Virus record (IMG/VR): IMGVR_UViG_2579778660_000005
Direction: 5' to 3' (one strand)
Origin: a virus
Taxonomy: Duplodnaviria; Heunggongvirae; Uroviricota; Caudoviricetes
DNA length: 16,519 bases
In this document: piece by piece, positions 1 to 16,205 of the stretch
How the letters are laid out: the number at the start of each line of letters is the position of its first letter
How positions within the stretch are numbered: position 1 is the first letter of the stretch
Translations under genes and position numbers: made by a program
The notes under the pieces: model-generated
The model's input: only the letters and a program-made list of their open reading frames with translations
The model's database searches: none
What the model was told of the DNA's origin: nothing

Positions 1-1284
1 TTACAGACTTCTGGAAGGTTGCGCAGCTCTTACAACACGCGGTTGATCTTCCGCAGCGTCTTCCAGCGCACTTAAATCACGGTCTTTCACCTCTGGCATT
101 TTCAGCGCAGAGATTAAACCAATTACTGAATATGCCATGATCATAATGGCGATCGGATACCAGGATTCCGTCATGGTGCAGAAAATCCCCGCCAGGATAG
201 GACCAAAACCGGAAGCGATAAGACCACCAATTTCTTTAGAAATAGCCATCCGGGTAAAGCGGTTTTTACAGCCGAACATTTCTGCCATGGTAATGTTTTC
301 CAGAGCAAATAATCCCAGCACCGCACAGTTATGAATCACAATCAGTGCAACCATAATGGTGCTCGGGGCATAGCTTTTATCTACAATGATAGAAAGCATT
401 GGCCATGCCAGCACAATCGCGGAGGTATTCATAATAATATACGGGATCCGGCGACCAATTTTATCGGATAACCAACCAAGGAACGGAATGGTCATAAAGC
501 CGAGAATCGAACTAATCATCAATGCATCTGTTGGAATTGCTTTGTTAAACAATAACGTCTGCACTAAATAGCCTGCAAGGAAAGTCTGAATTAACCCGGA
601 GTTACCCGCCTGACCAAAACGCAGCCCTGTTGCCAGCCAGAAGGATTTGCTCTGGAACATGCTACCAGCAGGTGCAGGTTTTGCTGTGGGTTGGTTGCTG
701 TCATTAACCTTCTCAAAGACCGGGCTTTCTTTCAGATTCATACGTAACCAGATAGCAAAGACCATCACGACAACGCTCGCCAGGAACGGTATACGCCATC
801 CCCACGCCAGCAGTTCCTCTTTACTGAGAATGAAGAACATAAAGGCCCAGATTGCCGTTGCGCTCAAGGTTCCGCAGTTAGTTCCCATAGCTACAAATGA
901 GGAGATAATTCCGCGCTTACCTTTTGGTGCATATTCCGCCAGCATCGTACCGGCACCGGAAATTTCCGCACCTGCACCCAACCCCTGAATAATACGCAGC
1001 GTCACCAGCAAGATGGGGGCAAAAACACCAATCTGTGCATAGGTCGGTAACACACCAATTAAGGTGGTACAGATCCCCATCATGGTGATGGTAATAAAGA
1101 GCACTTTTTTACGCCCTATTCTGTCGCCCATTTTGCCGAAAATAAATGCTCCGACAATACGCGCCACATAACCTGCACCGTAGGTTCCCATTGCCAAAAT
1201 TAACGCCATTGCCGTTGATGATTCAGGAAAAAATATTTCATGAAACACTAACGCTGCGCCGAGCGAATATAACTGGAAATCCAT
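1..1284 (-). CDS. ydfJ: MFS-type metabolite:H+ symporter (ProP/KgtP-like); N-terminus appears shortened
   Basis: 427-aa ORF with many hydrophobic helices and the MFS loop motif G-x-x-G-D-R-x-G-R-K-K starting near residue 50; aligns from memory with ProP starting at about ProP residue 25; an in-frame TGA lies two codons upstream of the ATG. Confidence 0.85.
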   Translation of the reverse strand: MDFQLYSLGAALVFHEIFFPESSTAMALILAMGTYGAGYVARIVGAFIFGKMGDRIGRKKVLFITITMMGICTTLIGVLPTYAQIGVFAPILLVTLRIIQGLGAGAEISGAGTMLAEYAPKGKRGIISSFVAMGTNCGTLSATAIWAFMFFILSKEELLAWGWRIPFLASVVVMVFAIWLRMNLKESPVFEKVNDSNQPTAKPAPAGSMFQSKSFWLATGLRFGQAGNSGLIQTFLAGYLVQTLLFNKAIPTDALMISSILGFMTIPFLGWLSDKIGRRIPYIIMNTSAIVLAWPMLSIIVDKSYAPSTIMVALIVIHNCAVLGLFALENITMAEMFGCKNRFTRMAISKEIGGLIASGFGPILAGIFCTMTESWYPIAIMIMAYSVIGLISALKMPEVKDRDLSALEDAAEDQPRVVRAAQPSRSL

Positions 1285-2068
1285 AATTCACAGGTGTTTT
1301 TTCCCATCCTGTGGTTTCCTTGGCGTTTTCTAGGTTTTTTCAGATAGTTGCATTTTTTAAAAAGCATCCTAAGTTCGATCTCAGTGTCTATCTGGGGCCT
1401 ATTTCTGTCCCATATATGCCCCAAAAAGACTCCCCAACAGATAAGTAGTTTTTCATGGATTTACGCGTAAAATCAATAACGGCTGGAAATCATTCAATAC
1501 TCGCACTATCGAAAAATTTACCAGCCAACCGCAGCACGTTCTTGCATAAGGCGTGTCTGCGGTTTTTCAACTATTCAGATAAATCACTCCCATCACATTC
1601 ATTCCTCCGCATCAAAGGCATATAGGCTATATCACCTTGATATTTTTCTTCTTCAGATAAAAACTGTTATCTATGTATACTTTTAAACCCAATCCGTGTA
1701 GAGTCTCTGCATAAGATAGTTTGCAGTTGCCGCTTCAGCTTGCGCCATAAACCGCCTGATTTTTGCTGCCACCTGTTAGCATTCCTGTATACCTGAAACG
1801 ACAATGTTTATCTACGAACTTTAAGAACACCCAAGATAAAAATTGTCAACTATATCATATATAACACATTACTAATTCGAGGCTATATGAACAGCATACT
1901 GATAATCACTTCTCTCCTTATCATATTCAGCATTTTTAGTCATGCCCTAATAAAATTAGGGATTGGCATATCCAATAACCCAGACAAAACCGATGTATAA
2001 GCCAACATATCCTGAATCAGACATACAATATCGCAATGAAAATCAATAATATTTTAAGGAATATCTTC

Positions 2069-2302
2069 ATGAAATCAAAAGACACCCTAAAGTGGTTCCC
2101 TGCGCAGCTTCCTGAAGTAAGAATTATCCTAGGGGATGCTGTAGTGGAAGTAGCAAAACAGGGAAGACCTATCAATACCAGAACATTGCTTGATTACATT
2201 GAAGGAAACATAAAGAAAAAATCATGGCTGGATAACAAAGAATTATTACAAACAGCGATATCAGTTCTTAAAGACAACCAAAATTTAAATGGTAAAATGT
2301 AA
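2069..2302 (+). CDS. ydfK: YdfK/YnaE-family small protein (77 aa)
   Basis: ORF track gives 88 aa from 2036; internal ATG at 2069 is preceded by AAGGA at 2056..2060 and matches the remembered YdfK start MKSKDTLKWF. Confidence 0.7.
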   Translation: MKSKDTLKWFPAQLPEVRIILGDAVVEVAKQGRPINTRTLLDYIEGNIKKKSWLDNKELLQTAISVLKDNQNLNGKM

Positions 2303-2618
2303 TATAATAAACTTACTTTTTTATCATTTTTCCACTTTAACAACATTTTGCTCCACTTTTCCACGACCAAACAACTTGAAATCTGGTTAAAATAACACGC
2401 AACACTATTCTTCTTCCTTGAGTCCGCCCGGAACTCGAAAAACAAACCGAGTTAAAGCCATTTTTCACAAAATCGATTTTGGGTCTCACCAAAATTACGG
2501 GGTTGCATACGCATTCGTTTATTTTCGAACGTGTACATACAAATATGCACAAAAATAATCAAAATTATTTTCTGAGATGCATTATGATATGAACACCAAT
2601 TTCGTATAGAGTCTCACT

Positions 2619-3209
2619 ATGTCTCGAATTTTTGCTTACTGTCGGATATCAACGCTGGATCAGACCACCGAAAATCAACGCCGGGAAATCGAAAGTGCAG
2701 GTTTTAAAATCAAACCTCAGCAAATAATCGAAGAACACATTAGCGGCTCAGCAGCAACCAGTGAGCGTCCTGGTTTTAACCGGTTGCTTGCTCGCCTGAA
2801 ATGTGGTGATCAATTGATTGTGACAAAACTGGATCGCCTTGGTTGTAATGCAATGGATATCAGGAAAACAGTGGAACAACTGACCGAAACAGGTATCAGA
2901 GTGCATTGCTTAGCATTGGGGGGCATTGACCTGACCAGTCCAACAGGAAAAATGATGATGCAAGTAATTTCAGCAGTCGCTGAATTTGAACGAGACCTTT
3001 TACTTGAACGCACTCATTCCGGGATAGTAAGAGCCCGCGGCGCAGGGAAACGTTTTGGTCGACCACCTGTGTTAAATGAAGAACAGAAACAGGTGGTATT
3101 CGAACGAATTAAGTCAGGTGTAAGTATAAGTGCCATTGCCCGGGAATTCAAAACCTCGCGGCAAACCATTTTAAGAGCCAAAGCAAAACTTCAGACACCT
3201 GACATATAA
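2619..3209 (+). CDS. pinQ: Serine recombinase, Gin/Hin/Pin-family DNA invertase
   Basis: 196 aa; N-terminal catalytic motif YCRISTLDQ and C-terminal HTH region typical of Pin/Gin invertases. Confidence 0.93.
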
Positions 3210-3306
3210 AAAATAATCTCGGTGTGAGATGCTTTACGTCTTCCAAGCCCCCTTCCTTGCCGTAAATGGAAAGATACATCTAATTATAGAATTTATATGT
3301 TTTACC

Positions 3307-3882
3307 CTACGGCAGTGCTGGCCATTCAATATCCTGTGCAGTTGACGTATCAACACGGTTCAGCAATACCCGATACTTTTTCCATGCTTCCAGCAACGAG
3401 ATTTCTTCCTCCGTTGCAATTTCCAGATCTGCAGCATCCTGAAGCGGCGCAATATGCTCACTGGCTACCTGCATCAGGTTGTTTTTTGTTTCTTCCGCCT
3501 CCCGGATCCGGAACAGTTTTTCTGCTTCCGTATCCTTCACCCAGGCTGTGCCGTTCCACTTCTGAAACTCCCCTTCCGGCGATAACCAGGTAACATTTTC
3601 CGGTAACGGACCGAGTTCAGAAATAAATAACGCGTCCCCTGATGCCACGTCATAAACTGTTTTACCCCGATGGTCTTCAACAAGATGCCACGATGCCTCA
3701 TCACTGTTGAAAACAGCCACGAAGCCTGCCGGAATATCTGGCGGTGCAATATCGGTACTGTTTGCTGGCAGACCTGTATGAGGCGGAATATATGCGTCAC
3801 CTTCACCAATAAATTCATTAGTTCCGGCCAGCAGATTATAAATTTTTATGGTCTGTGGTTGTTCACTCATTCTGAATGCCAT
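3307..3882 (-). CDS. tfaQ: Tail fibre assembly protein (Tfa)
   Basis: 191 aa recalled as lambdoid Tfa; start ATG overlaps the stop of the upstream tail-fibre ORF (TAATG arrangement). Confidence 0.85.
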
Positions 3883-4796
3883 TATGCAAGCCTCACAATA
3901 TAGTTAAATGCGATGTTTTTGACGGTGTTTTCCGCGTTACCAGCAGCGTTAACGGTGATGGTGTGTCCATGTGAACCAATCGCAACGGAGTGCGTATGAG
4001 CACCAATACCGACAGTATGTGCGTGAGCACCTGCAGATGCAGCTGTGCCGCTGACACTATGAGTGTGCGCTCCTGCAGCACTTGTATTCACACTGGCCGC
4101 AGACACTACCTTATGTACTGACCCATTTTGTGACCACTGGCTGATTGCTGATGCGCCTGTGACACTATGAGTATGGTTTCCGGCACTTGCGGCTGTACCG
4201 CTCACACTGTGCGTATGCGCCCCGGTGTTATTCGTGGATTTAGTGCCGTAATCAAACGACGATGTGGTTTTCGTCCCCAAATCCGTACTGGATGCGCTGG
4301 CGCTGTGGGTGTGCGATTTAATGCCGTCCTGTTCCTGAGACAATACGGCCCGACCACTGGCAGGTTTGCCCTTAATCGTCCAGCCACGCATATCAGGGAT
4401 CACGCCTGACGGATAAGCGGCTGCAAGTTTCGGGTAAGCAGATTTGTCAAAAGTCTGCCCCTGCATCAGGGCATAACCAGACGGAACGGTATCTGATGGC
4501 CACGGGATTGGTGCACCGACTGGATAAAACTCTGCAGGAGGATGAGCCGAGGTGTAAAGCTGCGCCCACGGCGACCAGTTTGCGTCGGTCGTATCCCGTC
4601 GTGAACGAATAAATGCCGGAGCATGAGCACCGCTTGTACCACTCCAGCCGATGAGTAACTCACCTTCGCCAACGGCTGTCATCCCTTTCAGGTGAATGAT
4701 ATTTCCATACGCTGTTGGATATCCGTTGTTATACACCTCGTATAACTCAAGACCTGCTGCCCCCTGCGTATTGTCTGTCAGCGCGGCTAACCGCAC
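3882..4796 (-). CDS. stfQ: Side tail fibre protein, C-terminal receptor-binding fragment (GTG start at a deletion junction; N-terminal part missing)
   Basis: 304 aa rich in Gly/Ser/Thr with repeated [15 protein letters not shown] His-x-His motifs typical of tail-fibre tips; starts with GTG at 4796 directly after an in-frame TGA and overlapping the stop of the L fragment. Confidence 0.65.
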
Positions 4797-5338
4797 TCAT
4801 CACCGCGATAGGTCCAGGTGCAGGTGTTGGCCAGCATGATACGTCCCGGAAAAACAGCGCCGTCCGTTTCCGTCGGTGTGGACAACACAAAGGAGGCACT
4901 GACCGCACTCAGTTCGCTGCACTGCTCGATGCGCCAGCGGCTGATCACCTCCTGCTCCGGATCGGCGTCGCTGTTTCCGTTGACGAAGTTCACCGCATCC
5001 AGAAAACGGGCGTAAACCTTACGCCTGACCACCGTTCCGCCGACCAGACTCTGCAGGTCTTCCGCCATCCCGGTGACCATGCCGTGCAGGTTAGAAACCG
5101 TCAGTGTCGGACGGGCAGCACTGCCCTTGCCGTTCAGTTCAAATCCCGTCCCCTGAATGGGGTATGCCTGATACTGCCGCCCCTGCCAGGTAACCGGCTC
5201 ACCTTTTTCGTTCTGCTCATTACAGAAAAAATAACGTTCACCACCGACCTCTGTCAGATCGATTTCCCAGAGCACCACCTGGGCTGACTGAGTGAGGCGT
5301 GTCGTCTCATGATGTGTTTCCTGTGGAATATCCTGCAG
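4787..5338 (-). pseudogene. Tail tip protein L fragment (lambda gpL homolog lacking its ATG and about 50 C-terminal residues)
   Basis: Residues QDIPQETHH...VVLWEIDLTEVGGERYFFCNEQNEKGEPVTWQGRQYQ...[12 protein letters not shown] match remembered lambda L nearly residue for residue; CTG at 5336..5338 replaces the initiator; stop follows ECG. Confidence 0.8.
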
Positions 5339-5831
5339 CGCCCCTAAATTGCCGCGGGCCAGTTCACCTATCAGAACGCCTATCTCCTGGCGGGCTGCTG
5401 CACTTTTCAGACCCAGCGAATGCGTGGCTTTTCCTGCCTGCTCCATTTTGCGGATATACACTTCTGCAGCACTGCTTACCCCCAGCTGGGCTGCCTTAGC
5501 ACGAAGCAACTCAGAAGATGAAAGATTCAGGCGGGTTGACATCACTGGCCGGAATGAGTTGTGCCGTTTCCTGTTCGAACTTAAGACGCTCACGTTCAGA
5601 CTGATACCAGGCTTTGCGCTCATGCGCGTCCATTTCGCCTTCTGCAACCGGCGGTGGTAATGCCAGAAATGCCGACACAATATCAACCACCCGATAAAGC
5701 TTGAGGTTGCTTTCATGCCCCCCTGCAACGGGTAGATTTTGCAGCCTTGCCGCAGCAGTCTGGCGATGTACACCTGACAGTGCCGCCAGTTGACTGATAT
5801 TCAGCGTCAGATTTTTTAACTCTCGATCCAT
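5339..5831 (-). pseudogene. nohQ: Terminase small subunit, Nu1-like (NohA family), frameshifted near 5535 and continuing in frame into the L fragment
   Basis: 106-aa frame (5511..5831) resembles the lambda Nu1 N-terminus; a second frame open from about 5542 carries Nu1-like C-terminal similarity and runs without stop into L. Confidence 0.55.
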
Positions 5832-7608: not shown

Positions 7609-8088
7609 TTATCTGAGGCATTGCTCACGAATGTATCGCTGTGCCCCCTCCAGTTGTTTTTGCATTATGATCAGTCTTTCTCTGAGGGAGAAATAATCCC
7701 GTTCAGCGGTGTCTGCCAGTCTGGGGGAGGTTGCATTATCCACGCCGGAGGCGATGGTGGCTTCACGCACAGACGGACAGATTGCTTTGATGTGCAACCG
7801 ACGACGACCAGCGGCAACATCATCACGCAGAGCATCATTTTCAGCTTTCGCATCAGCTAACTCCTTCAGGTATTTTGCATCGAGTGCAGCAACATCACGC
7901 TGGCGTATCTGCATGTCAGTAATGATTGCGGTCGCCTGGTTGAGTTTTTCCGACACATTATCGCGTTGCGCTTTGTAGGTAATGGCATTATCACGGTAAT
8001 GATTAACAGCCCATGACAGGCAGACGATGATGCAGATAACCAGAGCATAAATAATCGCGGCAACTCTGCTCACTGCTCTATCCCCCAA
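7609..8088 (-). CDS. rzpQ: Spanin inner-membrane subunit Rz (i-spanin)
   Basis: 159 aa; N-terminal TM helix [33 protein letters not shown] and coiled-coil region near-identical to remembered lambda Rz. Confidence 0.9.
7671..7853 (-). CDS. rzoQ: Spanin outer-membrane lipoprotein Rz1 (o-spanin), embedded in Rz in the +1 frame
   Basis: 60 aa with lipobox LVVVGC and proline-rich core [18 protein letters not shown], very close to remembered lambda Rz1. Confidence 0.85.
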
Positions 8089-8603
8089 CAGGCTAATGCG
8101 CTTTCCTGGTCACGACGAATAACCTGACCATAACAGTTATTTGAACGAATGCGGCAATCGCGCCCCCTGTCCTTAATCCACCAGCGAATCGCCTCGCAGG
8201 CACCTTTACGATCACCTGCATTCAGCCGTTTATAAAACGTCGACGGAAAACACTTACCGGGGCCAATGTTATAGGGACAAAATGACGCGATACCCGCTTT
8301 CTGGGGTTCGGTCAGCGGCACTTTAATATTGCGCTCCACCCATGCCAGCGCCTTATCGCGTTCAATGGCATTAACCTGAGCACATTTTTCCTTCGTCAGT
8401 TTCATGCCCGGAATAACAGATTTACCATCCACCATCGTGGCACCACGACAGATGGTCCATATGCCGGAACCATCGCGGTATGCCGTAGTGTGGTTACCCT
8501 CTTTTTCATCCAGAAACTGGTCAAGTATCTGTGGAGCTGATGCGCCTGCTCCAATCAGCGCCAGAGCTGCAGCTGACAGGCCGTATTTGATTTTTGCGTT
8601 CAT
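8070..8603 (-). CDS. rrrQ: SAR endolysin (phage-21 R-type lysozyme)
   Basis: 177 aa; weakly hydrophobic Gly/Ala-rich N-terminal signal-anchor-release helix [16 protein letters not shown], then E...D...T lysozyme motif region. Confidence 0.9.
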
Positions 8604-8658
8604 GGATATTTATCAGGATGCTACCAATGAAAGATACTGGAAAGCCAACCGCAAAAAG

Positions 8659-8973
8659 CTAACAACCCGTAATCGAGTTATCAGAACTGTTAATTTTTAT
8701 GGTATACCGCGCCTCTGAACAGGGGCGCGTTTCTGGCAACAGCTCGTCCCCTTCACATAACCCGGCAGCAACATCCAGGAAGACCTGTCTGATGCTCCTT
8801 CTGGCTGCTGCCTCATAAAACTCCAGCGCGGCACCTTCAACACGGACCAGCGAGATGTCCAGGTCAAAAATTTCACCGTCAAAGCGTTCTTTGTCCCGTA
8901 ACGCTAAAGTTACCGTAACTTTATTCTCAAAATTGCGGATCCCTTTCACAATCAGTTCATATTTTTGAGTCAT
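8659..8973 (-). CDS. ydfR: YdfR-like protein (DUF1327) inside the lysis cassette
   Basis: 104-aa ORF between holin and endolysin genes, the same position as ydfR in Qin-type prophages. Confidence 0.65.
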   Translation of the reverse strand: MTQKYELIVKGIRNFENKVTVTLALRDKERFDGEIFDLDISLVRVEGAALEFYEAAARRSIRQVFLDVAAGLCEGDELLPETRPCSEARYTIKINSSDNSITGC

Positions 8974-8977
8974 TGAA

Positions 8978-9193
8978 TTACTCTCCCCGTGCAGCCTTAC
9001 GCTTGTCTTCTTTAATCTTGAAATAAAGGTTTGTCAGGTACGTCAGCAGGCCAAATACCAGGCTACCCAGCACACCTATTGCTGCCCACTGTGAGGGCGT
9101 GACTTTATCGAGCAGCTGTAAAAACCAGTAGCCAGCACTGCCTGCGGAGGTGCCGTAGGCAATGCCTGTTGAAATTTTGTCCATGGATTTCAT
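8978..9193 (-). CDS. essQ: Pinholin, S21-like class II holin with dual-start motif (71 aa)
   Basis: Sequence [26 protein letters not shown]...[13 protein letters not shown] matches remembered S21; two in-frame ATGs at 9193 and 9184 (minus) preceded by GGAGGTGA; the 90-aa track ORF is an unsupported upstream extension. Confidence 0.88.
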
Positions 9194-9295
9194 AGCCTCA
9201 CCTCCGCACGGAACGGATGGCATAGTTATTATGTGTAGGCTTCCAGACACATCAATCAGAGCCTTAATTGATATATATGCTGGAGACGATGCAAT

Positions 9296-9444: not shown

Positions 9445-9840
9445 CTAACCTCGCATGTCAAAGCCAGATTTCTGAAAATCTCTGTAGACTTCCGGATTGT
9501 TGAAGGCCGGAAATTTGGCTTTATGAGCTGCGGACTTTATCGCTTCGCAATAGGCTTTATCACCGTTACTGGTAGATATTTTTAACGCCGTGCCATCCTG
9601 AGAGAATTCCATATGCAACCTGCATTTTTTCCCTTTCCAGTTATGCGGCTCATCAAGTTTGGCATTAATTGCAGCTCTGATTCCCCGCGCTTGCGCCCCC
9701 CATTCATCCTGATCATCCCAGCGTCCTGAACTGCAACTACCTGTAGCAGTAGTTTTGTGGCAATCTGAAGGGTGTAAAGGTGTGCATCCCGCAACAAAAC
9801 CGACCCAAAAAGTCAACATAACGATTTTCTTTAATCCCAC
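9445..9840 (-). CDS. Lipoprotein with diverged TolA domain III-like C-terminal domain (paralog 1)
   Basis: 131 aa; GTG start preceded by GGAG; signal peptide with lipobox VAGC; C-terminal part aligns with paralog 2 and with remembered TolA domain III. Confidence 0.75.
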   Translation of the reverse strand: MGLKKIVMLTFWVGFVAGCTPLHPSDCHKTTATGSCSSGRWDDQDEWGAQARGIRAAINAKLDEPHNWKGKKCRLHMEFSQDGTALKISTSNGDKAYCEAIKSAAHKAKFPAFNNPEVYRDFQKSGFDMRG

Positions 9841-9990: not shown

Positions 9991-10419
9991 TCAGGGTTTA
10001 AAATCCAGCACCCCATTTTGAAATACTTTATATACTTCCGGCGAAGGGGGGGCAGGTATATCAGCATTCTTTATCGCATTCATCGCTTCACGACATAAAT
10101 CGAGGTCTCCACTTTCTCTTTTAACCTCCAGTAGAAGGCCATTCGGGGCCATATGCATTCTCAGTGTACACTCTTTTCCTGAATACTTACTCGCATCCCC
10201 GAACTGTTTTTCGATGGCGCTCTTGATTTGATGGGCATACAGACGGATATCCTCACTAACATCAGAAGTACGTTCAGATGAACTCACATACTGTGTCTCT
10301 ATTGCTTTATCGGAGTAATATGATGTACGGTCATGATAATTTGTCGATACAGCATCAGTGCACCCGATAATAATCCCACTAATAATCAACGTAAGAATTG
10401 ATGCGCTACGAAAACCCAT
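9991..10419 (-). CDS. Lipoprotein with TolA domain III-like C-terminal domain (paralog 2)
   Basis: 142 aa; ATG preceded by GAGG; lipobox IIGC; C-terminal 86 aa (YAHQIKSAIEKQF...GKECTLRMHMAPNGLLLEVK...IPAPPSPEVYKVFQNGVLDFKP) about 60 percent identical by eye to the remembered E. coli TolA C-terminus. Confidence 0.8.
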   Translation of the reverse strand: MGFRSASILTLIISGIIIGCTDAVSTNYHDRTSYYSDKAIETQYVSSSERTSDVSEDIRLYAHQIKSAIEKQFGDASKYSGKECTLRMHMAPNGLLLEVKRESGDLDLCREAMNAIKNADIPAPPSPEVYKVFQNGVLDFKP

Positions 10420-11816: not shown

Positions 11817-12638
11817 TTACCTAGTTACCTTTTTTAACTGCCGCTCAGCCCATGCTTCTTCAATATCAAACCGGGTCACCAGCGCATCATAGAATTTCTT
11901 AACTGTTTTTTCCCATGACGCGCGTGTTATCTGGTTTGTCACCTCGCATATAGCATTAAATGCCTCCGTTGATGGTAGTCTTTCATAGCCCCGACCACCA
12001 CAACGCTGGCAGTCTCTGATAACAGGCATACCACGTTTTACCGACTCTTCACGGTGAATGGCGACACCACGCCCACGGCAATCCTTACAGGCGGTGGAAA
12101 CCTCACCCTTTCCGCCACACTCCGGACAGGCAACTTTTACCACCTCCCTGACTTTTTTCCATTCTTCCCAGTAAGACGGATACACACCTTTCGTACACTT
12201 TGCCCATACCGGCGGCTTACCATCCGGATACTGGACCTTGTTTGTAAAAACTACGCTTTCAATAAATTTTTCCCCATAGCAACAAGGGCACTGCTTTTTA
12301 CTCGCTGCGCTGCGGGCATAATCCTCAAAAGCGTACGAAGCCATAATGCGCATCACTAACGGTTTTATTTCTGCCGGAAGTTTTCTCAACGCCGCCACAC
12401 GATCGCACCGACTGAGTGCATAATCTGCCAGTAATTCTGTTGCCCGCGCCCTGTCATTCATACTGATGCCCATTTTCCCCAGGAACGCAGAAAATCCCAT
12501 CTCAGCCCGATTCTGTGTCATGCCCTGCGCGGCCATCACATCAGTGATACTCAGCGCATCTTTTGACGTTGAGGCCGATGCATCGGTCAGGCCAGGGGAT
12601 TTTGGGGAGTAGTATTTCGGTAAATCTTCCAGTTTCAT
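11817..12638 (-). CDS. quuQ: Late-gene antitermination protein Q (lambda Q family)
   Basis: 273 aa; shares with remembered lambda Q the blocks SPKSP...TDVMAA.GM, CxxC-GxG zinc motifs (CKDCRGRG, CQRCGGRGY) and TVK..YDALV. Confidence 0.9.
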   Translation of the reverse strand: MKLEDLPKYYSPKSPGLTDASASTSKDALSITDVMAAQGMTQNRAEMGFSAFLGKMGISMNDRARATELLADYALSRCDRVAALRKLPAEIKPLVMRIMASYAFEDYARSAASKKQCPCCYGEKFIESVVFTNKVQYPDGKPPVWAKCTKGVYPSYWEEWKKVREVVKVACPECGGKGEVSTACKDCRGRGVAIHREESVKRGMPVIRDCQRCGGRGYERLPSTEAFNAICEVTNQITRASWEKTVKKFYDALVTRFDIEEAWAERQLKKVTR

Positions 12639-13009
12639 TTTTTGACCTGCTCTTCATGCATTATGGGGTAAATCTTCACCCCCAGACGTCCACCAGATAC
12701 TGGCTGACCACGAACGATATTGATTTCATCAAACTGCTCATCGTCCATTAACACTCCCGCATGCGTCAGCGCATCCAGCGGTGCTTTCAGGATATTGTCC
12801 AGGTCGCGACGACGCTTATCCGGTGGCTCTGCAATCACCTTTATCGCCAGCCTTCCGGACAGGCTTAATTTCAGCCGCTGCTGGCGAACAATAAGCGCCA
12901 CAGCCCGGCGATAACGCTTTCCCTCCTCCGAGATAAAATATGTGCTGCCACGGCGTCGCCAGTAAGTGTTCACCGTCGGCGGGTAAGGTAAAACCAAATC
13001 TATGAGCAT
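12635..13009 (-). CDS. rusA: Holliday junction resolvase RusA
   Basis: 124 aa with RusA-like blocks LPYPPTVNTYWRR and DKRRRDLDN..K...DALT; ATGA overlap with the Q start. Confidence 0.85.
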   Translation of the reverse strand: MLIDLVLPYPPTVNTYWRRRGSTYFISEEGKRYRRAVALIVRQQRLKLSLSGRLAIKVIAEPPDKRRRDLDNILKAPLDALTHAGVLMDDEQFDEINIVRGQPVSGGRLGVKIYPIMHEEQVKK

Positions 13010-13021
13010 CAGTCACCTCTT

Positions 13022-14026
13022 TTACCCAAGCACGCCAGTTGCAAAGGCGTGATCAAGAAAACGAAAAATTAAATCAACCTGAGAACCATGCTTTTCTTCG
13101 AACGCCAGAGGATCCGCATGAAACTCGTTGTGATGCTCCCGACACAGCGGTAGCGTGAAAATATCGTGAGATTTTGTCCCCATTCCGCCCTGACCATGAC
13201 CAATCAGGTGATGGGGATCGTCGGCTGGCTTACCACAACACGCACACGGCTGTGTCTTCACCCAGCGTGTGTATTTCTCGTTAACCCAGCGGCGACGTTT
13301 AGGTCGTTTCATGAAAGATTCCGGAGACTCAGGATCAACGGCAATGCTGACCACCGTCTTTTCCTGTGGTGGGTTCTGTTGCTGGTGGGCGTGAGGCAGC
13401 GGCGCAAGATTTTTTGTGCGCTGTTTCAGTATGCTGGTGGCGGTCTGCTCTCCCGGTACGATGTCGCTTTCACGGTACATTGAGCGGATTTTTTCCGCAC
13501 GCAACCCCAGCGAACCACGTAATACCGCTTCCGGTAGCGCGTCCGCCACCTGATTGCGGACCGCCCACCAGGATAATTCAGCCAAAGATAATTCACGCTC
13601 CTGCGTACCGCTTATTGCGTGACCGATGACGTCAATCATCCATGCTGACAGGTTTTGATGAGCAAGTTGCTCGAGTGATTCGGATGTCTGGTCACGCAGC
13701 TGGTTGTCGCAGTGCCAGCACAACACCATTGCGCCGGTACCATAACGGTGAATGACGGTTTCGCTGTGATGATAATCGCCGTGTGGCCACTGGCAGGATT
13801 TAATATGGCGCAACAGCCAGTCAGACAATGCACCAGCACCACCAGCAGCACGAATTACCCGTGCGTTACTGAAAAACGGCAGCAATGTTTTGTCTTCCAC
13901 CAGCGGCTGGCGAACGGCAGGAACGACCCCGGACGGCAGATTACGCATGCTTTTCGGTTCCGGCTCCACCAGTACCCGGGTATTGTGGAATACCGGCATG
14001 GATTCACGGCCCGGCTTAACGACCAC
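13022..14026 (-). CDS. ydfU: DUF968 protein with C-terminal HNH-like Cys/His motif (YdfU-like); start uncertain
   Basis: 334 aa; C-terminal CACCGKPADDPHHLIGHGQGGMGTKSHD...CREHHNEFH; track start is GTG, an ATG lies at 13999. Confidence 0.7.
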   Translation of the reverse strand: MVVKPGRESMPVFHNTRVLVEPEPKSMRNLPSGVVPAVRQPLVEDKTLLPFFSNARVIRAAGGAGALSDWLLRHIKSCQWPHGDYHHSETVIHRYGTGAMVLCWHCDNQLRDQTSESLEQLAHQNLSAWMIDVIGHAISGTQERELSLAELSWWAVRNQVADALPEAVLRGSLGLRAEKIRSMYRESDIVPGEQTATSILKQRTKNLAPLPHAHQQQNPPQEKTVVSIAVDPESPESFMKRPKRRRWVNEKYTRWVKTQPCACCGKPADDPHHLIGHGQGGMGTKSHDIFTLPLCREHHNEFHADPLAFEEKHGSQVDLIFRFLDHAFATGVLG

Positions 14027-14321
14027 CAGCCCGAGTTCCGGTAGCCTCCATAATTGCAGGCACTAGCGCCGTGAACTTTTCACGCTTATCCCTGGTGTCG
14101 ATAGCCTTCCAGCGTTCGAATATCTTCACTCGATTAACGCCAAGCGCTCGCTGATCAACCGCGCCACCTTCATCTGTGACACGCTGAACATCGATGTTCG
14201 GGCGCTCTTTCAAAGCCCAGAATGCTTCAGTGATTAATATCGTCGCCTGCTCCTGTGTCATTCCTGGTCGACATATCCAGGCATCCAGAGCCTCACGAGC
14301 CTGTTCAGGAGTGATTTTCAT
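14016..14321 (-). CDS. Hypothetical phage protein (101 aa; possibly YdfX-like)
   Basis: ORF overlapping both neighbours in a compact operon downstream of the Cro-like gene; no recognised motif. Confidence 0.45.
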   Translation of the reverse strand: MKITPEQAREALDAWICRPGMTQEQATILITEAFWALKERPNIDVQRVTDEGGAVDQRALGVNRVKIFERWKAIDTRDKREKFTALVPAIMEATGTRAGGR

Positions 14322-14532
14322 TGTTCAACCGCCCCGCCCGCTTCGTCTTACGATATTCGTCATAAACCTTGGGATCATACAGAAGCTCGCCGCCAGATGC
14401 CTCCTGTAGACGCATCGCGCGACCTTCAGGAACCAGCTCTTGCCATTGAGAAACAGCAGATGGGTCAACGCCAGCAGCTTTCGCTACTTTGGCTTTCGTA
14501 CCGTAAAAATTAATTACGTCTGATTTAAACAT
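14305..14532 (-). CDS. dicC: Cro-like HTH regulator (DicC-like), 75 aa
   Basis: HTH-like segment GTKAKVAKAAGVDPSAVSQW; start taken at the internal ATG 14532 preceded by GGAGG; divergent from the repressor gene. Confidence 0.75.
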   Translation of the reverse strand: MFKSDVINFYGTKAKVAKAAGVDPSAVSQWQELVPEGRAMRLQEASGGELLYDPKVYDEYRKTKRAGRLNNENHS

Positions 14533-14545
14533 CGCACCTCCAGTA

Positions 14546-14559
14546 TTGAGTTTTCTCAA
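14546..14559. promoter_or_regulatory. Candidate DicA operator (TTGAGTTTTCTCAA) in the dicC-dicA divergent region
   Basis: Imperfect inverted repeat whose 10-mer AGTTTTCTCA recurs twice downstream of dicA. Confidence 0.45.
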
Positions 14560-14609
14560 TGCTAATCACTCAAGGAATCTCAAGTCAAGGGTTATTAAGA
14601 TATCTAAAT

Positions 14610-15017
14610 ATGAACGAGAAAACTTTAGGTCAACGCATTAGAGAAAGACGTAAGCAGGTAGGTTTAAGTCAAAACGGTTTAAGCAAAGCTGCTGGCGTAT
14701 CTGGCTCATCAATTTCATTATGGGAAAGTGACCATACAGCCCCGCGCGGGCAAAATTTGCATCGCCTCGCCGAGGTATTGCAATGTTCACCAACCTGGAT
14801 ACTGTTTGGCGACGAGGACAAAACACCAGCTCCCCCTGTTTCACTCGATAGTGCCTTAGACTTATCGGAAGATGAGTTAGAGATGCTGCGTTTGTATCGC
14901 GCACTTCCTAAATCAGAGCAACAAGCACAACTCAGCGAACTCCGCGCCCGCGTTGAGAATTTTAATCGCCTGTTCACCGAGCTATTAGAGGCTCGCAAAC
15001 GCAACAAGCATCAATAA
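14610..15017 (+). CDS. dicA: XRE-family HTH repressor (DicA-like), 135 aa
   Basis: Contains LQCSPTWILFGDEDK and a C-terminal region matching remembered DicA; start at ATG 14610, the 152-aa track ORF is an upstream extension. Confidence 0.88.
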   Translation: MNEKTLGQRIRERRKQVGLSQNGLSKAAGVSGSSISLWESDHTAPRGQNLHRLAEVLQCSPTWILFGDEDKTPAPPVSLDSALDLSEDELEMLRLYRALPKSEQQAQLSELRARVENFNRLFTELLEARKRNKHQ

Positions 15018-15209: not shown

Positions 15210-15365
15210 ATGGATACTATCGATCTTGGCAACAACGAATCTCTGGTGTACGGCGTGTTTCCAAACCAGGACGGCACGTTCACCGCAATGACGTATACCA
15301 AAAGCAAAACGTTTAAAACCGAAAATGGTGCCCGTCGCTGGCTGGAAAGAAACTCAGGTGAGTGA
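15210..15365 (+). CDS. ydfA: YdfA-like small protein (51 aa)
   Basis: ATG at 15210 preceded by AAGGGGAAATGAGG; protein MDTIDLGNNESLVYGVFPNQDG...; stop overlaps the next start. Confidence 0.7.
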   Translation: MDTIDLGNNESLVYGVFPNQDGTFTAMTYTKSKTFKTENGARRWLERNSGE

Positions 15366-15366
15366 T

Positions 15367-15798
15367 ATGGATTTCGACACAATCATGGAAAAGGCTTACG
15401 AAGAATACTTCGAAGGCCTTGCCGAAGGCGAAGAAGCTCTCAGCTTCAGTGAGTTTAAACAGGCACTCAGAATAAGAATGTGCTCTCACAATGACGCGGA
15501 GCACAAATATGAGAAGCAAAATCAGACCGCAGAAAATTTTGTTCTGGAACCCGGAGAAACGCTTTTCAAAATTCCCGTTACGTGCCCCATTTGCGGTTTT
15601 ACATCAGAAGAACTTGACGACTCCTGTAACAATCAGGAAACAACCAAGTATGTCGAAGATGATACCGAGTGCGCACGAAGAACGATTATATCCACGAGTC
15701 CAAACTCCAGAACCAATAAATCTCACTTTGAGAGGGTGATTAACCCACTAGACTGGCCCCCTGAATCTCCAGACAACCAGTATCACTTAAATAAGTGA
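15367..15798 (+). CDS. YdfB/YdfC-like protein with CPICGF motif; 3' end replaced by IS2 sequence
   Basis: 143-aa ORF starting [17 protein letters not shown]; its last about 16 codons and stop lie inside the IS2 left end that begins at 15749. Confidence 0.55.
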
Positions 15799-15839
15799 TA
15801 GTCTTAATACTAGTTTTTAGACTAGTCATTGGAGAACAG

Positions 15840-16205
15840 ATGATTGATGTCTTAGGGCCGGAGAAACGCAGACGGCGTACCACACAGGAAAAGATCGCAA
15901 TTGTTCAGCAGAGCTTTGAACCGGGGATGACGGTCTCCCTCGTTGCCCGGCAACATGGTGTAGCAGCCAGCCAGTTATTTCTCTGGCGTAAGCAATACCA
16001 GGAAGGAAGTCTTACTGCTGTCGCCGCCGGAGAACAGGTTGTTCCTGCCTCTGAACTTGCTGCCGCCATGAAGCAGATTAAAGAACTCCAGCGCCTGCTC
16101 GGCAAGAAAACGATGGAAAATGAACTCCTCAAAGAAGCCGTTGAATATGGACGGGCAAAAAAGTGGATAGCGCACGCGCCCTTATTGCCCGGGGATGGGG
16201 AGTAA
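15840..16205 (+). CDS. insC: IS2 transposase OrfA (InsC)
   Basis: 121 aa [56 protein letters not shown]... matches remembered InsC. Confidence 0.92.

Follow-up and report, generated by a model that had tools for sequence, protein, structure and literature searches.

The window, which is the whole stretch of 16,519 nucleotides that was analysed, begins at the stop codon of ydfJ (position 1) and carries on its minus strand, from 1 to 1284, a 427-aa ORF whose N-terminus reads MDFQLYSLG (ORF list and direct reading). This ORF corresponds to residues 29–455 of intact YdfJ, such that the segment constitutes the 3′ part of ydfJ with codons 29–455 and the stop codon, an assignment drawn from the ORF list, TIGR00883 and RefSeq. 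The ATG lies at plus-strand positions 1282–1284 and the minus-strand reading leading into it is ...CTG TGA ATT ATG GAT TTC, with an in-frame TGA at 1288–1290 on the minus strand, two codons 5′ of the ATG, just as an earlier reading made from the sequence alone had noted. On direct reading no Shine-Dalgarno sequence is visible 5′ of this ATG. The truncated YdfJ scores 453.5 bits against TIGR00883 (MHS, or metabolite:H+ symporter, family MFS transporter), above the family cutoff of 443.45. Its match spans profile positions 7–400; that of the full-length protein begins at position 1, so that the first six are lost. Against the ProP and ShiA profiles the match of the truncated ORF opens at positions 40 and 37, respectively. 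RefSeq lists the matching K-12 segment as a pseudogene with the remark 'missing N-terminus', and does the same in every occupied genome fetched.

Intact ydfJ is 1368 nt long and codes for 455 aa, with the N-terminus MTIEKHERSTKDLVKAAVSGWLGTALEF preceding MDFQLY... The 455-aa gene lies 57 bp downstream of rspB, without phage DNA, in all eight unoccupied strains sampled (CREC-544, O104:H4 C227-11 and six others, fetched from the class of genomes in which the match to the window ends at 1290), and the ydfJ segment of the window differs from the intact O104:H4 C227-11 allele by a single nucleotide. Prophage-free orthologues from four genera (Citrobacter, Enterobacter, Lelliottia and Pantoea) have lengths of 455–458 aa; the N-terminal 28 residues are conserved among them, with LV.AAVSGWLGTALEF invariant, and M29 is invariant among the aligned orthologues. 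Alignment with prophage-free orthologues had been suggested as a check by the sequence-only reading, and among the forms sampled it yields no prophage-free one of 427 aa, the sampled 427-aa orthologue (P0101, from Enterobacter) being flanked by phage genes. By comparison with the 455-aa orthologues, the MHS-family YdfJ in the window is without its complete N-terminus, and 28 residues are absent; the earlier estimate of about 24 missing residues was right as to the loss and short as to its size.

The hydrophobic stretch of intact YdfJ runs from about residue 14 to residue 46, and Pfam MFS_1 is matched by the intact protein from residue 21, which pairs with profile position 2, whereas the match of the truncated form opens only at profile position 33. 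Because of this hydrophobic stretch and the start of the MFS_1 alignment, we place the cut most likely inside TM1, between the halves of the conserved motif LEF|MDF. The ORF had been described as beginning at the first transmembrane helix; it does start in the TM1 region, but most likely inside the helix rather than at its beginning. The intact protein as modelled by AlphaFold2 on a 20-sequence alignment was too poor for placing TM1 (mean pLDDT 45.5), and a PDB sequence search returned no solved YdfJ relative at E ≤ 1e-5.

Identity to the uninterrupted ydfJ locus is perfect through window position 1286 and reaches 1290 with a 1-nt indel. This region, 1276–1290, is a copy of the att core at the int-distal junction (attR in the lambda convention), of the form GAAATCCATAA(A)TTCA when aligned with the uninterrupted locus. 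Its first 11 bp (1276–1286) match attB perfectly and positions 1287–1290 match after a 1-nt gap, as the window has CCATAA-TTCA where attB is CCATAAATTCA, one A being absent at the junction. The perfect 11 bp at 1276–1286 likely form the crossover segment, with an inferred position for the strand exchange itself. The ATG of the ydfJ ORF at 1282–1284 falls inside the core. The intact gene reads CTT GAA TTT ATG at this point and the junction CTG TGA ATT ATG; one A fewer in the junction core (AA, against AAA in attB) puts the TGA in frame. The prophage boundary had been expected at 1285–1320 and is indeed found near there, although the junction at 1276–1290 coincides with the lower limit of that interval or falls slightly short of it.

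The other end of such an element can be seen at the Qin prophage of K-12 MG1655, where the sequence reads ...ACGCATGACTCTT GAAATCCATAAATTCA AGCGCAGTGCC..., with a second core copy at L004:21771-21786. This copy lies 37 bp past the stop codon of intQ, a tyrosine recombinase pseudogene that adjoins the core, and is followed by exactly the missing 84 nt of the 5′ part of ydfJ and then by rspB. No second core copy is present in the window, in which the sole near match (15365–15375, minus strand, one mismatch) is at chance level; the far-end core is absent because the window stops at the end of a draft contig inside an IS2 element. By exact protein matches the window belongs to contig JJMD01000062.1 of draft assembly GCA_000627855.1, apparently its source, and the last base of that contig is also the last base of the window. 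The second copy is thus one that is observed in K-12 and implied by the population data, and the window of the source strain shows a single junction. Nor does the window contain an integrase gene.

The sequence past 1290 is phage DNA (RefSeq, PHROGs), and includes ynfT, ydfK, a pin invertase and tail-fibre genes among others. The plus-strand genes ynfT (1887–2000) and ydfK (2069–2302) are placed by the RefSeq annotation of a 98.9%-identical K-12 stretch, and a pin-type serine DNA invertase (2619–3209, plus strand) by the K-12 annotation and PHROGs. The invertase gene adjoins genes for tail-fibre assembly (3307–3882) and a C-terminal fragment of a tail fibre (3882–4796). Next is a chimeric remnant of 328 aa on the minus strand (4787–5773), in which a segment resembling the end of a tape-measure protein is joined to part of minor tail protein L, and which is overlapped by an N-terminal fragment of the terminase small subunit (5511–5831). 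Rz, endolysin and holin genes (7609–9250), a Q antiterminator (11817–12638), RusA (12635–13009), a DUF968 gene (13022–14026) and regulators of the immunity region (14016–15017) follow. IS2 extends from about 15795 to the window end (16519), with orfA at 15795–16205 and orfB starting after it, and sits in a phage ORF (15325–15798) whose match to phrog_35040 stops at position 143 of 205. The whole block for head and tail morphogenesis is deleted, with a deletion point different from that of K-12 Qin. Judged by this gene content, the prophage in the window is a defective, heavily rearranged lambdoid element of the Qin type.

The interval from the holin to the Q antiterminator holds two tandem paralogous ORFs (9445–9840 and 9991–10419) of 131 and 142 aa, both belonging to phrog_5772. 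They occupy the usual cargo site of lambdoid phages, and a precomputed Pfam match is to the TolA C-terminal domain (PF06519). We speculate that the pair could interfere with Tol-dependent entry.

The prophage arm that adjoins the core (1291–1562) is without an ORF of convincing length. Matches in different classes of genomes end at 1423, 1548 and 1562, and ydfJ prophages that otherwise differ thus have 133, 258 or 272 bp next to the core in common. An alignment of the arm from five E. coli and two Enterobacter junctions shows a conserved block about 130 bp inside the arm, at 1407–1423, which is an imperfect palindrome, GTCCCATATATGCCCCA. Sixteen of its 17 positions, including all of CCCATATATGCCCCA, are identical in every ydfJ prophage compared, those of Enterobacter included; the exception is position 2, with T in the E. 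coli prophages and C in the Enterobacter ones, and the surrounding sequence diverges. The palindrome occurs once in the window and once in K-12 Qin, and is a candidate protein-binding site, which may be an arm-type site for Int or a site for an accessory protein. In the DinI-type phages an ATG within it is annotated as the start codon of a DinI-like gene. A search for repeats of arm-type sites across 1250–2050 gave only short two-copy families of doubtful meaning.

How often the ydfJ site is occupied was examined by megablast of window positions 1–2400 against 5426 complete E. coli genomes. Matches end at discrete points (1290, 1423, 1548 or 1562) or run the full length. A 206-bp probe spanning the site in the intact locus is unbroken in 2009 of the 5426 genomes and split in about 3360, and in the latter the two halves overlap at probe positions 89/92–107, that is, by 16–19 bp. 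About 60% of the complete E. coli genomes therefore have some prophage at the site. A ydfJ′-ynfT-ydfK left end like that of the window is found in 1986 genomes, and other ydfJ prophages carry DinI-like and NleG genes and have only the first 133–272 bp of the phage arm in common with the window. Truncated alleles of ydfJ can equal the intact alleles of other strains or come very close to them: there are no differences between K-12 (truncated) and NDM4 (intact), nor between L015 and L021. This suggests that the site passes between its occupied and empty states more quickly than ydfJ accumulates differences.

The same site appears to be used in Enterobacter. The 427-aa orthologue P0101 adjoins phage genes in both contigs examined (tail genes, DinI and a Peptidase_S24-like gene), and it ceases to match the intact Enterobacter gene directly 5′ of ATG GAT TTC (M29), the codon being identical in E. 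coli (junctions aligned at L005:2980-3003, L006:2980-3003 and L025:1575-1590). Since the Enterobacter prophages break the gene at the same M29, this attB is used across genera.

We regard it as very nearly certain that window positions 1–1290 are the int-distal junction (attR) between the chromosome and a defective Qin-type lambdoid prophage, and that integration removed the 5′ end of ydfJ. The sequence-only reading had proposed such a removal, and it is borne out by the 455-aa gene in all eight unoccupied strains, by phage DNA past 1290 and by the 84 nt and core retained in K-12. Integration accounts for the locus because homology breaks at 1286/1290 where unoccupied strains have an intact gene, because K-12 keeps the missing segment and a second core beside intQ, and because attB is unbroken in 2009 of 5426 genomes and elsewhere split with a 16–19 bp overlap. 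It is also supported by the phage genes that fill the rest of the window and the 1986 genomes with the same left end, by the conservation of the 28 residues across genera together with the prophage-flanked 427-aa form of Enterobacter, and by the RefSeq remark on the missing N-terminus and three published accounts (PMC6379469, PMC8112680, PMC3032704).

By analogy with lambda Int, an IntQ-type tyrosine integrase would recombine phage attP with the 16–19 bp site at ydfJ codons 27–33 (GAAATCCATAAATTCA, plus strand). Codons 29–455 (the 3′ 1284 nt) remain beside ydfI at the int-distal junction, and codons 1–28 (the 5′ 84 nt), along with the link to the upstream rspAB, would move to the int-proximal end. 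The phage side contributes TGA ATT directly before the retained ATG and does not rebuild an N-terminus, and the remnant is a fragment without its own start, ribosome-binding site or upstream transcription, and probably without the first half of TM1. We infer that transporter function is lost in the 427-aa form, because half of TM1 and the native start are missing, no promoter rises above chance and no ribosome-binding site is visible.

A different fate for the fragment, with the junction itself accepted, is that the 427-aa product is nevertheless made and active, through transcription from the phage side, or that the insertion is a reversible switch in which excision restores the gene. The reading frame is open in all 13 truncated alleles examined, with few non-synonymous changes, and a preprint lists ydfJ among the genes with altered RNA levels upon DicC induction in K-12. 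The capacity of truncated alleles to equal intact ones likewise suggests fast interconversion of occupied and empty sites, but repeated fresh integrations account for this identity equally well. The ratio dN/dS of truncated ydfJ is 0–0.15 in most pairs and 0.30 in one pair with only 2 differing sites; it is uninformative about selection on the fragment because the polymorphism predates the insertions, the alleles matching intact ones, and the low values are inherited from intact ancestors and silent as to selection after insertion. Against these readings, a promoter and terminator scan of 1200–2700 gave counts equal to those of shuffled sequence with nothing convincing facing ydfJ′, there is no above-chance promoter match on the minus strand at 1285–2035 and no visible Shine-Dalgarno sequence, and the first half of TM1 is lost with a conserved family motif; moreover, the prophage is defective and carries IS2. 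We consider an active remnant or a switch improbable. Were a switch to operate, ydfJ-ydfI would be cut off from rspAB and the transporter put out of action as long as a prophage occupied the site, and the transporter would be regained on excision.

An origin of the truncation in illegitimate deletion, or in the action of an IS, at one edge of a prophage already resident could be entertained for an element so heavily rearranged, with its head and tail block deleted and IS2 inserted. However, about 2000 genomes with Qin-type ends have the identical junction, which is also seen with prophages of other types and in Enterobacter. In K-12 the 84 nt survive intact at the opposite end with the core duplicated, and no IS end is found at 1285–1320; we give such an event hardly any credence. 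Equally negligible is the view that the 427-aa ORF is native and of full length, the 455-aa forms being over-extended gene calls, for although some database orthologues are 427 aa long (P0001, P0022, P0081, P0101, P0114, P0117) and M29 is invariant, it is refuted by the DNA break at the junction (homology with unoccupied strains ends no more than 6 nt upstream of the ATG, with phage sequence beyond), by the conservation across genera of 28 upstream residues that belong to the family profiles, by the comparison of CTG TGA with CTT GAA, and by the phage genes adjoining the sampled Enterobacter form.

With integration as the origin of the truncation, the 427-aa 'YdfJ' of K-12-like strains is to be annotated as a prophage-truncated fragment and not as a native protein, and functional or structural work on YdfJ is better done with the 455-aa allele of unoccupied strains. 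The rspAB/ydfJ-ydfI cluster has been linked to L-gulonate/D-mannonate catabolism. Where the site is occupied, as it is in some 60% of the complete E. coli genomes, ydfJ-ydfI is parted from rspAB, and this could affect the sugar-acid pathway of the cluster.

Truncation of ydfJ by a Qin-type prophage is already annotated and published. Qin has been described as integrated at the 5′ end of ydfJ with loss of the promoter and 28 codons (PMC6379469), and ydfJ is given as the place of Qin insertion for K-12, B, W and Crooks (PMC3032704). Nakamura et al. 2021 (PMC8112680) gave an att sequence of 18–19 bp for ydfJ prophages with O104:H4 C227-11 as the empty-site reference, and obtained an attP PCR product for the related PPydfJ of O26:H11 11368.

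The Qin/ydfJ′ junction of K-12 MG1655 is base-for-base the same as that of the window, with the core GAAATCCATAATTCA followed by CAGGTG... The likeness continues over window positions 1–4050, which are 98.9% identical to K-12 (ydfJ′, ynfT, ydfK, pinQ, tfaQ and an stf fragment), but past about 4.8 kb the window is another mosaic in which only scattered blocks are 86–100% identical. The window prophage differs from K-12 Qin in its chimeric remnant of the small terminase subunit and tail protein L and in its Q and RusA region; its lysis-gene alleles are 86–90% identical to those of Qin, and the cspI/cspB/cspF and relBE-hokD block of K-12 has no match in the window. Among complete RefSeq E. coli genomes none covers at least 80% of the window, and the best place reaches 71%. 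By its site and left end the prophage is of the Qin type, and the gene content of Qin is not kept along the whole element.

The PPydfJ lambdoid prophages of STEC/EPEC (PMC8112680) use the same attB in ydfJ and have the first 133–258 bp of the phage arm in common with the window. They carry genes for DinI-like proteins and NleG effectors at the junction, whereas the window has ynfT-ydfK-pin there, and many of them lie in tandem clusters. Elements e14 in icd and Rac in ttcA, as treated in PMC6379469, are further lambdoid elements integrated site-specifically inside a coding gene, as here. However, e14 and Rac carry a substitute gene end such that a full-length product is kept, whereas at ydfJ the phage side provides TGA ATT and supplies no N-terminus.
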